Under the pieces are notes generated by a model, which searched no databases, was not told the origin of the DNA, and saw nothing but the letters and a program-made list of their open reading frames with translations. Shown in pieces: positions 2,115 to 5,933 of a stretch of 64,000 nucleotides of DNA; position 1 is the first letter of the stretch; each line of letters opens with the position of its first letter. The position numbers were made by a program, and so were the translations under genes. This DNA comes from Giardia intestinalis. Its lineage: Eukaryota. The stretch is taken from NCBI GenBank assembly GCA_000002435.2, contig CM018792.1; one strand, written 5' to 3'.

Positions 2115-4016
2115 TCACGCCTTCCCCCTGCACAGGAACCACCAGCAGAGGAAGCCCACGAGGCCCCCCACGACAGCGACCACGGCGACGGCAATGCCCG
2201 CGATGGCCCCCGTGCGGAGGCCGCTCCTATTACTGCCAGAGGACACACAGGAGGCCCCAGCATCATCAGGGCTGTACCCATCGTTGCACACACAGACAGA
2301 GTTATCATCAGTGGAGTTGCTGGGACAGCCATCCACGCATGACTTCCTCCCAGGGCTCACCTTCCCACTACTACATGCCTCGCACATGTCATCCCTGTTG
2401 GGCTTCTTACTACTGTCACAGGAGGTACAGACAGCGGGGGCCATACCACCATCAGACAGAGCTGCTGGGGCTGTACACTGGGAGCAGCCCTCTACCCCCA
2501 CATATGCCTTAGCAGTATTACCAGTGCCTGTCAGTGTGCCAAGGGGGTTACTACAAGCCAACACAGACTGATCAGTGTTGGATGCACCAGGCACTACGAA
2601 GTACCTATTGTTGGCTGCTTCTGTGCAGATCCCAGTATTACCTGCTGTCTTGCACATGAAGCTACCAGGAGCCTTCTGAGTGCTATAACAGCCACCCATG
2701 TATAGGAAGTAGTTGTTGGTGCACTGTGTACATACACCATTAGCACAAGTATTCCCAGCCTTTTGAGCCTCACTAGCACAGAGACCATCTATAGGAGCTT
2801 GTGAACTATCTCCACAATAGGAACAGTAGTGCTTTGTGGTGCCCTGATCATCTATTACGATGGCATCACAAGAGCCAGCTGTCCCCCCACAAGCCGTGGG
2901 GTCCTCGCAGGTCTTCTCTGTGCATGTATAGTTGTCTGAGGTTCCAGCGGGCTTCCTGTTAGGCTTGCACTTTGTGCACTTGAGAGGTCCTGTAGACTCC
3001 TTTGTGCACTCGGCACACCCATCGATGCCCCCCTGTGCATTATCACAAGCAACGCACTCACCAGTAGGACCATTGCCTTTCATGAAGAACCCAGGCTTGC
3101 ATGTATCACACTTATCATTGCCAGTTTGAGTGCAGGTGGCACAGTTAGCACCTGGACAAGCGGTGCATGTAACCGTACCACTACCACTACTGTAGTATCC
3201 ATCGAGGCACTCCGAGCAGGTCGGCGGTGTCGCCGAGTCCTTGGTACACTTCTTACACCCGGCAATGCCCTGGTAATTTGGATCGGCTCCAGCTGAAACG
3301 GTACTGCATAAAACACATGTTTTGTCCTCCTTCATAAATAGGGCCTCGTCAGCGCCTTTACATCCAGCGTAGTCTTTTGTCACGCACGTCGAGGTCCCAT
3401 CAAGGGCCGTCCTGGGGATCTTACTGTTATCACAAGCTGTGCACTTCGGCTTCTTGGTAGTCGAATCAACCTCACACTGGGTACATGCTTGATCTATCGT
3501 GTTGCAAGGAAGGCACTTCCCCGACTCCGGGTCAGCATAAGTGTTTCCAGTGCATCCATTATTATTCACGCATGACTTGTCAGTCTTCAGGTACTTCCCC
3601 TCTGGACACGATGTGCAATGATTCGGACCACTTCCATCGCAGGTCAGACAGGACTGATCACACTTCTCACATGCATCACCCTTCTTAATGTATCCATCTT
3701 GGCAGACAGTGCATGTGGCCGGTCCGCTAGTGCCCGTGTGGGAGCATTCTGAGCATCCAGCGACTCCCATGACCCCGTTTCTATCTATAGTATCGGAGCA
3801 CAAGATGCACTCACTACCCTTCTCTGATGGTGTAACTGGGTTCTTGAACAGGCCGTTAGCTGTATTACAAGCAGTGCACAGTCCTCCCTCAGCCTTTGTG
3901 CATATCTCACTGCCAGGGTGTGCATCCTTGTTGTAGCACCCGCCCATGAAGAGGAGTCTCATACTATCACTATCACCCCCACACCACATAGCACTATCAC
4001 TATCACTGTACAGCAT
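2115..4016 (-). CDS. vsp: VSP-like unit 2, lacking a signal peptide (possible pseudogene/cassette)
   Basis: The 633-aa product has the CRGKA tail, a C-terminal TM segment and CXXC/GGCY motifs. It is more than 99% identical at DNA level to unit 3 over about 1.7 kb. The ATG at 4014-4016 is only 12 nt downstream of unit 3's stop codon. Confidence 0.8.
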   Translation of the reverse strand: MLYSDSDSAMWCGGDSDSMRLLFMGGCYNKDAHPGSEICTKAEGGLCTACNTANGLFKNPVTPSEKGSECILCSDTIDRNGVMGVAGCSECSHTGTSGPATCTVCQDGYIKKGDACEKCDQSCLTCDGSGPNHCTSCPEGKYLKTDKSCVNNNGCTGNTYADPESGKCLPCNTIDQACTQCEVDSTTKKPKCTACDNSKIPRTALDGTSTCVTKDYAGCKGADEALFMKEDKTCVLCSTVSAGADPNYQGIAGCKKCTKDSATPPTCSECLDGYYSSGSGTVTCTACPGANCATCTQTGNDKCDTCKPGFFMKGNGPTGECVACDNAQGGIDGCAECTKESTGPLKCTKCKPNRKPAGTSDNYTCTEKTCEDPTACGGTAGSCDAIVIDDQGTTKHYCSYCGDSSQAPIDGLCASEAQKAGNTCANGVCTQCTNNYFLYMGGCYSTQKAPGSFMCKTAGNTGICTEAANNRYFVVPGASNTDQSVLACSNPLGTLTGTGNTAKAYVGVEGCSQCTAPAALSDGGMAPAVCTSCDSSKKPNRDDMCEACSSGKVSPGRKSCVDGCPSNSTDDNSVCVCNDGYSPDDAGASCVSSGSNRSGLRTGAIAGIAVAVVAVVGGLVGFLCWWFLCRGKA

Positions 4017-4021
4017 TCACT
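4015..4021 (-). terminator. Putative Giardia polyadenylation signal AGTGAAT (AGTRAAY) for unit 3, 8 nt after its stop; it overlaps the ATG of unit 2
   Basis: The minus-strand sequence reads TGA cttaggt AGTGAATG. The same arrangement recurs at 226-232, 2101-2107, 5932-5938 and 7763-7769. Confidence 0.55.
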
Positions 4022-4028
4022 ACCTAAG

Positions 4029-5933
4029 TCACGCCTTCCCCCTGCACAGGAACCACCAGCAGAGGAAGCCCACGAGGCCCCCCACGACAGCGACCACGGC
4101 GACGGCAATGCCCGCGATGGCCCCCGTGCTGAGGCCGCTCCTATTACTGCCAGAGGACACACAGGAGGCCCCAGCATCATCAGGGCTGTACCCATCGTTG
4201 CACACACAGACAGAGTTATCATCAGTGGAGTTGCTGGGACAGCCATCCACGCATGACTTCCTCCCAGGGCTCACCTTCCCACTACTACATGCCTCGCACA
4301 TGTCATCCCTGTTGGGCTTCTTACTACTGTCACAGGAGGTACAGACAGCGGGGGCCATACCACCATCAGACAGAGCTGCTGGGGCTGTACACTGGGAGCA
4401 GCCCTCTACCCCCACATATGCCTTAGCAGTATTACCAGTGCCTGTCAGTGTGCCAAGGGGGTTACTACAAGCCAACACAGACTGATCAGTGTTGGATGCA
4501 CCAGGCACTACGAAGTACCTATTGTTGGCTGCTTCTGTGCAGATCCCAGTATTACCTGCTGTCTTGCACATGAAGCTACCAGGAGCCTTCTGAGTGCTAT
4601 AACAGCCACCCATGTATAGGAAGTAGTTGTTGGTGCACTGTGTACATACACCATTAGCACAAGTATTCCCAGCCTTTTGAGCCTCACTAGCACAGAGACC
4701 ATCTATAGGAGCTTGTGAACTATCTCCACAATAGGAACAGTAGTGCTTTGTGGTGCCCTGATCATCTATTACGATGGCATCACAAGAGCCAGCTGTCCCC
4801 CCACAAGCCGTGGGGTCCTCGCAGGTCTTCTCTGTGCATGTATAGTTGTCTGAGGTTCCAGCGGGCTTCCTGTTAGGCTTGCACTTTGTGCACTTGAGAG
4901 GTCCTGTAGACTCCTTTGTGCACTCGGCACACCCATCGATGCCCCCCTGTGCATTATCACAAGCAACGCACTCACCAGTAGGACCATTGCCTTTCATGAA
5001 GAACCCAGGCTTGCATGTATCACACTTATCATTGCCAGTTTGAGTGCAGGTGGCACAGTTAGCACCTGGACAAGCGGTGCATGTAACCGTACCACTACCA
5101 CTACTGTAGTATCCATCGAGGCACTCCGAGCAGGTCGGCGGTGTCGCCGAGTCCTTGGTACACTTCTTACACCCGGCAATGCCCTGGTCATTTGGATCGG
5201 CTCCAGCTGAAACGGTACTGCATAAAACACATGTTTTGTCCTCCTTCATAAATAGGGCCTCGTCAGCGCCTTTACATCCAGCGTAGTCTTTTGTCACGCA
5301 CGTCGAGGTCCCATCAAGGGCCGTCCTGGGGATCTTACTGTTATCACAAGCTGTGCACTTCGGCTTCTTGGTAGTCGAATCAACCTCACACTGGGTACAT
5401 GCTTGATCTATCGTGTTGCAAGGAAGGCACTTCCCCGACTCCGGGTCAGCATAAGTGTTTCCAGTGCATCCATTATTATTCACGCATGACTTGTCAGTCT
5501 TCAGGTACTTCCCCTCTGGGCACGATGTACAATGATTCTGACCACTTCCATCGCAGGTCAGACAGGACGGATCACACTGCTTGCATTCGTTATTCTCTTT
5601 ATAGTACCCTGCTTGGCACTCAGTGCACGTGGCAGGTCCTGGACTATTAGTTGGTTCCGTGCACTTGAGGCAGTTAGCCACCCCCGTATATCCATCTGCT
5701 CCCTTGGTATCCCAGCAGAGGATGCACTCCCTTCCCTTCTCTGATGGTGTAGCAGGGTTCTTGAACAGGCCGTTAGCTGTATTACACTCAGTGCACACTC
5801 CATTACTGGCTGCTGTGCATATCTCACTGCCAGGGTGTGCATCCTTGTTGTAGCACCCGCCCATGAAGAGGAGTCTCATACTATCACTATCACCCCCACA
5901 CCACATAGCACTATCACTATCACTGTACAGCAT
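4029..5933 (-). CDS. vsp: VSP-like unit 3, lacking a signal peptide (possible pseudogene/cassette)
   Basis: The 634-aa product has the CRGKA tail. It is identical to unit 2 except for a divergent stretch of roughly 110 aa near the N-terminus (SEICTAASNGVCTECNTANG...ECQAGYYKENNECKQCDPSCLTCDGSG). Confidence 0.8.
   Translation of the reverse strand: MLYSDSDSAMWCGGDSDSMRLLFMGGCYNKDAHPGSEICTAASNGVCTECNTANGLFKNPATPSEKGRECILCWDTKGADGYTGVANCLKCTEPTNSPGPATCTECQAGYYKENNECKQCDPSCLTCDGSGQNHCTSCPEGKYLKTDKSCVNNNGCTGNTYADPESGKCLPCNTIDQACTQCEVDSTTKKPKCTACDNSKIPRTALDGTSTCVTKDYAGCKGADEALFMKEDKTCVLCSTVSAGADPNDQGIAGCKKCTKDSATPPTCSECLDGYYSSGSGTVTCTACPGANCATCTQTGNDKCDTCKPGFFMKGNGPTGECVACDNAQGGIDGCAECTKESTGPLKCTKCKPNRKPAGTSDNYTCTEKTCEDPTACGGTAGSCDAIVIDDQGTTKHYCSYCGDSSQAPIDGLCASEAQKAGNTCANGVCTQCTNNYFLYMGGCYSTQKAPGSFMCKTAGNTGICTEAANNRYFVVPGASNTDQSVLACSNPLGTLTGTGNTAKAYVGVEGCSQCTAPAALSDGGMAPAVCTSCDSSKKPNRDDMCEACSSGKVSPGRKSCVDGCPSNSTDDNSVCVCNDGYSPDDAGASCVSSGSNRSGLSTGAIAGIAVAVVAVVGGLVGFLCWWFLCRGKA

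Follow-up and report, generated by a model that had tools for sequence, protein, structure and literature searches.

Where does one gene end and the next begin in the first ∼10 kb of a 64,000-nucleotide (nt) stretch of Giardia intestinalis DNA (contig CM018792.1; hereafter the window)? Cysteine-rich open reading frames (ORFs) follow one another there on one strand, and at each boundary a stop codon, a polyadenylation signal and an ATG are fused into a short junction. An earlier note on this DNA had left two options: the ATG is an accidental product of the 3'-end signal, in keeping with units that are cassettes, or the junction represents coupled 3' processing and initiation. We find that the ORFs form a linear array of variant-specific surface protein (VSP) units, most of them 5'-truncated pseudogenes, and that the ATG is very probably a by-product of the polyadenylation signal carried by this gene family.

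An array of truncated VSP units

Coordinates are window positions, and all array features read on the minus strand. Between positions ∼1 and 10,100 this strand carries a series of cysteine-rich ORFs, each ending in ...GFLCWWF[LI]CRGKA and then TGA. Six units (U1 to U6, numbered from the head of the array) lie head-to-tail on the one strand, with ∼50–75 nt between a stop and the point where VSP homology resumes; linear arrays are defined by at least two adjacent head-to-tail units with short spacers, and the units of the window are arranged in just this way. U1 to U5 contain 11.3–12.0% cysteine, 24–34 CXXC motifs, one or two GGCY motifs and a C-terminal transmembrane segment, which is followed by the shared CRGKA tail. 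The database proteins nearest to the units are Giardia VSPs, and U1, U4 and U2 score 150.9, 148.6 and 128 bits with the Pfam VSP family PF03302 (gathering cut-off 31.4 bits). The ORFs flanking the array exactly match GL50803_00111911, GL50803_0011152 and GL50803_004323 of Giardia intestinalis WB clone C6.

The downstream units are homologous to U1 only from nt 383 of U1 onwards (..FLFMGGCY), and they thus lack the signal peptide and ∼130 N-terminal residues. Three of the unit ORFs have no exact match in the protein collection, which fits the current annotation, where units of this type are pseudogenes. We conclude that the first ∼10 kb comprise no fewer than six VSP units in a linear array, and that five of these units are 5'-truncated pseudogenes (pVSPs). 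A pVSP of exactly this type, GL50803_0050265 (NC_051859.1, minus strand), has been described in a preprint (10.1101/2022.03.07.483299). GL50803_0050265 and GL50803_0050266 fit units of the U4/U5 type, as locus tags that are not assignable to window coordinates. We also considered U3 as the pVSP GL50803_0050264 and rejected this match, because the polyadenylation motif listed for that gene (GACTCGGGTAGTGAATGTAT) is unlike the one in the window and one residue differs.

The junction and the VSP polyadenylation signal

The exact 18-mer TGACTTAGGTAGTGAATG is present in five copies, all on the minus strand (225–242, 2100–2117, 4014–4031, 5931–5948 and 7762–7779), and there is no further match in the window even at three mismatches. 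Its mean count in shuffled sequences is 0.07, and 0 of 100 shuffles reach five. Each copy comes directly after TGC AGG GGG AAG GCG (CRGKA) plus TGA. At junction 3 (4013–4031), the site addressed by the earlier note, the TGA stop is located at 4031–4029, the 17-nt motif ACTTAGGTAGTGAATGC at 4029–4013, the hexamer AGTGAA at 4021–4016 and the ATG at 4016–4014. At all five sites the A that ends the TGA stop also begins the motif, the hexamer begins 8 nt past the stop codon, and all five signals lie within 0–15 nt after the stop of a CRGKA-ending ORF. The earlier note had placed the five junctions to within 1 nt and had described their order, CRGKA-TGA-cttaggt-AGTGAATG, correctly. It had also rightly recognized a Giardia VSP 3' end and a signal of the AGTRAAY type, to which AGTGAAT conforms; it had not recognized that the entire 17–20 nt are a known, family-specific motif.

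This motif is the VSP-specific extended polyadenylation signal, for which the consensus ACTTAGGTAGT[AG]AA[CT]GC and the form ACUUAGRUAGURAAYRY have been published (see also PMC1762436). The 17 nt of the junction match it throughout: there are five exact ACTYAGRTAGTRAAY matches, each followed by GC, and published signal and junction are identical in sequence and share their location at the stop of CRGKA-ending genes. In isolate WB the extended signal is found in all 136 VSPs, and 323 of its 327 genome hits are in VSPs or pVSPs (10.1101/2022.03.07.483299). Table S6 of that preprint (motif GACTTAGGTAGTRAAYGCKK) gives the exact 20-mer GACTTAGGTAGTGAATGCTG for 57 WB genes (11 VSP and 46 pVSP), with counts of 180 for GTAGTGAATG, 19 for GTAGTAAATG, 88 for GTAGTAAACG and 4 for GTAGTGAACG. 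By these counts ∼200 VSP or pVSP 3' ends bear the same ATG, and at least 28 table rows labelled VSP have the ATG version of the motif. The junction ATG is the AAYRY tail of the motif in its AAUGC form, and hence a family-wide by-product of the 3' signal. Motif and array type are both already known for this very genome; the published motif papers, in the parts available to us, make no comment on the ATG created by the T-G version or on its annotation as the start of array members.

The general polyadenylation signal in Giardia is AGURAA, and AGUGAA, one of its two main variants, is used by 15% of genes (PMC9014877). The junction shares with this signal the AGUGAA core, a very short 3' untranslated region and the position near the stop, whereas the VSP motif, unlike that of ordinary Giardia genes, extends the hexamer to ∼17–20 conserved nucleotides. 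The typical distance from AGTRAAY to the stop is taken from the literature and not from genes of the window, where AGTRAA lies within -13 to +80 nt of the stop in only 7 of 23 other long ORFs.

The motif variants in Table S6 are split by gene class. AGTGAATGCT is ∼90% pVSP, that is, array units, and AGTAAACGC belongs mostly to bona fide VSPs; the main text of the published papers, as far as accessible, contains no remark on this split.

The five junctions are embedded in longer stretches of identity. Such blocks comprise the first 1475 nt of U4 and U5, perfect runs of 1058 and 330 nt between U3 and U4, the last 384 nt of U2 and U4, the last 136 nt of U1 and U5 and the first 74 nt of U2 and U6. 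Their borders are abrupt, and the adjoining stretches are only 45–65% identical. The three junctions with an open frame behind the ATG lie inside perfect or near-perfect blocks of ∼500 nt, and the two with a closed frame share an identical block of ∼230 nt. Because they lie inside duplicated or homogenized blocks, the five copies are not independent, and their excess over chance reflects recent duplication or homogenization rather than five separate conservation events.

Every array unit ends in the family's invariant CRGKA, a stop and the extended polyadenylation signal, here in its array-type variant GACTTAGGTAGTGAATGCTG. In the explanation that we favor, the junction would recur because the duplicated or homogenized segment included both this signal and the GTGATA-rich spacer behind it, presumably by way of unequal crossing-over or gene conversion. 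The ATG happens to be in frame and stop-free in one spacer variant, represented by three near-identical copies; in the remaining variants a stop follows its fifth codon.

Frame and start features of the embedded ATG

According to the earlier note, the ATG opens the ORF of the next unit at every boundary. This is true for only three of the five junctions. At 2117, 4031 and 5948 the ATG opens ORFs of 620, 633 and 634 codons, respectively (MLYSDSDSAMWCGGDSDSMRLLFMGGCY...), whereas the ATGs at 242 and 7779 give MLYNV and then two stops, with the following VSP sequence in another frame. The unit between 5946 and 7700 (in U2) contains no ATG at all. In a published pVSP row, the MLYSDSDS reading and the CRGKA-ending VSP reading are likewise in different frames.

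We compared the window with loci from DH, P15, GS and ENA contigs and with the published motif table. The internal array junction at the syntenic DH locus (L006) is TGACTCAGGTAGTGAATGCTGTACAATGTGTGA and reads MLYNV*. Array junctions with GTGAATGCT on metagenome or environmental contigs read MLYSV* (two junctions, L003) and MLYNV* (L004), all of them closed after five codons, and the frame is hence closed in four of four array junctions from other isolates or assemblies. In an alignment of the junctions (A1) we find a conserved module, TGACTYAGGTAGTGAATGCTNTAYARTG..TGTGATA; the open-frame variant of the window differs from the other variants by a 2-nt indel that removes the in-frame TGA. The point where VSP sequence resumes varies among the aligned array junctions (LLFMGGCY, SEICT or far downstream). 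One open variant in about six matches the level expected by chance (one of three frames, and no stop in ∼20 codons), and a start codon kept by selection would not show such an unconserved frame.

The last unit of the DH array, beyond which non-VSP DNA follows, ends in AGGTAGTAAACGC without an ATG. The solitary VSPs (on an assemblage-A-like ENA contig, L001, and in P15, L002, and GS, L005) carry AGTAAACG. Within the DH locus the internal junction, at 12112, has GAATGC and the terminal unit, at 13963, has AAACGC.

The sequence around the junction ATG does not resemble a VSP start. The initiator element (Inr) PyAATGTT has been reported at 135 of 136 true WB VSPs; it is absent from the minus strand of positions 1–10200, and the junction reads GAATGCT. 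In the published survey of linear arrays it was found at no downstream member (PMC2996952). Over the 50 nt that precede the junction ATG, A+T amounts to 42–44%; the corresponding value for 17 other ORFs of the window that start with ATG is 62 ± 8%. The N terminus MLYSDSDSAMWCGG... reaches a maximum 10-residue hydropathy of 1.06, compared with 2.05–2.96 in eight bona fide VSP signal peptides. No signal peptide follows the ATG at the unit starts initiated by it, and the N terminus encoded by the spacer (peptides MLYSDSDSAMWCGGDSDSMR and LLFMGGCYNK) has no hydrophobic core. With these features, the junction ATG is very probably not a functional initiation codon.

The position of the ATG relative to the expected cleavage site bears on the same question. 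Cleavage in Giardia takes place mostly 13–15 nt from AGURAA (PMC9014877). For AGTGAA at 4021–4016, the cut would be expected 8–15 nt past the first base of the ATG (the A at 4016). With the cut downstream of the ATG, a read-through transcript would on processing keep the ATG on its upstream fragment and off the downstream ORF, and coupled processing and initiation on one RNA would not be workable. Initiation arising independently within the motif would have no promoter-like features to support it. The identity of the motif, the anatomy of the array, the behavior of the frame and the absence of signal peptide, Inr and A/T-rich upstream region are established directly; together with the literature, such sequence features suggest a lack of transcription or translation of the units.

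Read in frame with the upstream ORF, the motif is TGA CTT AGG TAG TGA ATG and provides three stops; a second frame has ACT TAG. U2 to U5 all lie in one continuous frame that is broken only by the junction stops. Stop-codon read-through fusing these in-frame units was considered and rejected, as the motif gives three in-frame stops (TGA..TAG TGA).

Units, spacers and neighboring sequences

The head of the array is U1 (7777–9963), a near full-length VSP with a signal-peptide-like segment (AFLLIPLFVVSALA, 9963–9922), 34 CXXC motifs, a transmembrane segment and the CRGKA tail. Its 5' end reads ACAGCCTTTCTACTG where CAATGTT would be expected, with GCC in place of ATG. Neither an in-frame ATG nor an Inr is present ahead of the signal-peptide-like segment (9922–10160, minus strand), and only ∼200 nt of G+C-rich spacer separate U1 from the upstream gene. 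An Inr and a long non-coding upstream region are frequent, although not defining, for a linear array's first member, and U1 has neither; in published WB arrays the first member has an Inr in 12 of 25 cases, whereas the head unit here lacks both ATG and Inr. U1 is likely a pseudogene. Its missing ATG looks like an old, propagated defect, or could conceivably indicate an unconventional start. The U1 5' region has ACG where a related DH model has its ATG start. A 5' region without ATG, like that of U1, is also present at the syntenic DH locus (L006, ∼9940–10000) and at the assemblage-A-like locus (L001, ∼9940–10000).

Two types of junction follow. Junction 1 (7762–7779, type II) consists of TGA and the extended signal ACTTAGGTAGTGAATGC, and its ATG reads MLYNV, out of frame with U2 (5946–7761), a 5'-truncated VSP unit that starts ...WSEICTQASSG and has no in-frame ATG. 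Junction 2 (5931–5948, type I), again a stop and the extended signal, has its ATG (5933–5931) in frame with U3 (4029–5933), a 5'-truncated unit of 634 codons from the embedded ATG and without signal peptide. Behind junction 3, the 5'-truncated U4 (2115–4016) has 633 codons from the embedded ATG. The ATG of junction 4 (2100–2117, type I) is in frame with U5 (240–2102), also 5'-truncated and of 620 codons, and that of junction 5 (225–242, type II) again reads MLYNV. U6 (1–224) is the start of another 5'-truncated unit, cut by the window edge. The type I spacer at 3956–4012 (ctgtacagtgatagtgatagtgctatgtggtgtgggggtgatagtgatagtatgagact) is rich in GTGATA repeats and lies between the polyadenylation motif and ..LLFMGGCY, the point where homology to full-length VSPs resumes; it is ∼57 nt long, with further copies at 2042–2098 and 5873–5929.

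The VSP array and its upstream neighbor (1–12000) have a G+C content of 52–64%, compared with 44–51% for positions 14000–64000. A higher G+C content of VSP regions has already been remarked in print, and the array agrees with it. The gene directly upstream of the array, GL50803_00111911 (10165–11493, minus strand), encodes a hypothetical protein of 442 residues, and the G+C content of its region is 64%. The protein falls into a cluster of 37 members at 90% identity, among them no fewer than three further WB paralogues (113952, 114445 and d114445), which suggests a segmentally duplicated gene travelling with VSP regions.

Elsewhere in the window, an A/T-rich tandem repeat at 42644–42763 (16-nt unit AAATTCAAAAATTTGG, ∼6 copies, 85% matches) lies between the ORF at 41654–42601 and the body of the ORF at 42628–45399. 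A 12-nt tandem repeat (AGAAAGTTGCGA, five copies, 23818–23877) is located in the ORF at 23548–24417 (minus strand) and is predicted to encode a 4-residue repeat. The convergent ORFs at 13436–18604 (plus strand, 1722 residues) and 18588–20519 (minus strand, 643 residues) have a 17-nt 3' overlap (18588–18604), and the same convergent pair is found in DH (L006).

Alternative explanations and significance

The junctions could mark genuine starts, each ending the upstream mRNA and launching the next unit, which would yield VSP-like proteins without signal peptide. We consider this very unlikely, although several observations speak for it and against our explanation. Three units keep uninterrupted ORFs of 620–634 codons from the junction ATG. 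The MLYSDSDS start was chosen in four older WB annotation models (XP_001703902, XP_001707667, XP_001705183 and XP_001706653), two of which are only 61–64% identical to U4. An earlier plasma-membrane localization of "VSPs" without signal peptide is mentioned, and criticized, in the preprint (10.1101/2022.03.07.483299). Giardia genes are tightly packed and their polyadenylation signals can overlap stop codons (PMC9014877), and with the very short 5' untranslated regions of Giardia, initiation close to the ATG is conceivable on sequence grounds. These points have to be set against a frame that is closed after five codons in two of five junctions here and in four of four elsewhere, and that needs a 2-nt indel to open; against the lack of Inr, A/T-rich upstream region and signal peptide; and against a predicted cleavage 13–15 nt after AGUGAA, which would separate the downstream ORF from the ATG. 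Moreover, the ATG-bearing motif also stands after the at least 28 rows labelled VSP, and such units are classed as pseudogenes in the current annotation. The closed frames and the lack of start features leave coupled 3' processing and initiation, one of the options in the earlier note, without support; its other option, a start that is an accident of the 3'-end signal between cassettes, is favored by the same features and by the identity of the motif.

An over-expanded mis-assembly of a repetitive VSP region might also produce a repeated junction between near-identical units. The units do share perfect blocks of 1–1.5 kb, and in the earlier WB assembly VSP arrays had been broken up or collapsed. 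However, the syntenic locus of the independently sequenced DH has its units head-to-tail as well, with this junction inside the array, independent metagenome contigs bear the junction too, and the differences between the units lie in defined blocks and are not random. An artifact is thus extremely improbable: the array may have the wrong copy number, but the junction is real. A different proposal grants the junction a role in recombination, with the CRGKA 3' end, the polyadenylation motif and the GTGATA spacer kept as a donor-cassette border or gene-conversion anchor, and the ATG irrelevant. The units are mosaic, with abrupt switches from 100% to ∼50–60% identity, and the junction is kept in WB, in DH and in environmental assemblies, whereas the next unit is truncated at varying 5' points. 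The division of AGTGAATGCT and AGTAAACGC between pVSPs and VSPs in Table S6, the switch to AAACGC in the last unit of the DH array and the authors' own proposal of pVSP arrays as a gene-conversion reservoir point in the same direction. Yet common descent from one amplified ancestor with homogenization within arrays explains the pattern equally well, transfer from the array to expressed VSPs is hypothetical here, and the abstract of PMC2996952 describes VSP switching as epigenetic, with no rearrangement of DNA. We regard this proposal as quite unlikely; it is compatible with the explanation that we favor and only adds a function for the array. It is also unlikely that the array-internal junction (the AGTGAATGCT variant plus the GTGATA spacer) is a selectively kept module, either as a conversion-tract border or as a cryptic start of non-coding or sense pVSP transcripts that would feed RNA-based VSP silencing. 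The near-exclusive association with pVSPs in the table, the conservation across isolates despite variable truncation and the AGTAAACGC variant at the last DH unit are the basis of that idea.

A by-product ATG in an array of pseudogenes is in line with what is known of such arrays. In WB, linear arrays contain over half of the vsp sequences, with spacers of ∼60 bp on average that range from an overlap to 241 bp, and their downstream members were "hypothesized not actively expressed" and seen as a possible reservoir (PMC2996952). The published pVSP or linear arrays of G. lamblia WB (PMC2996952; 10.1101/2022.03.07.483299) and those of G. muris are, like the array in the window, head-to-tail with short spacers; as here, their downstream members lack Inr and signal peptide, there is evidence of duplication and recombination, and they have been read as non-expressed reservoirs or remnants. 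Switching of VSPs in Giardia is described as epigenetic or post-transcriptional (PMC2996952).

The arrangement also recalls a system outside Giardia, in likeness of possible working and not in family membership. The silent VSG pseudogene arrays of African trypanosomes consist of tandem, incomplete surface-antigen genes with conserved 3' ends, and they, like the Giardia arrays, have been proposed to feed mosaic gene formation. To our knowledge, no expression-site transposition is known in Giardia.

Taken together, our analysis indicates that a spurious start codon can arise from a conserved 3'-end signal and that, in earlier annotations, it became the start of "VSP" gene models. For annotation of Giardia genomes, an ORF that starts MLYSDSDS... 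immediately behind a CRGKA stop is best regarded as a pseudogene unit and not as part of the antigen repertoire. The split between AGTGAATGCT and AGTAAACGC could help to trace the origin of the arrays and their possible donation to expressed genes.

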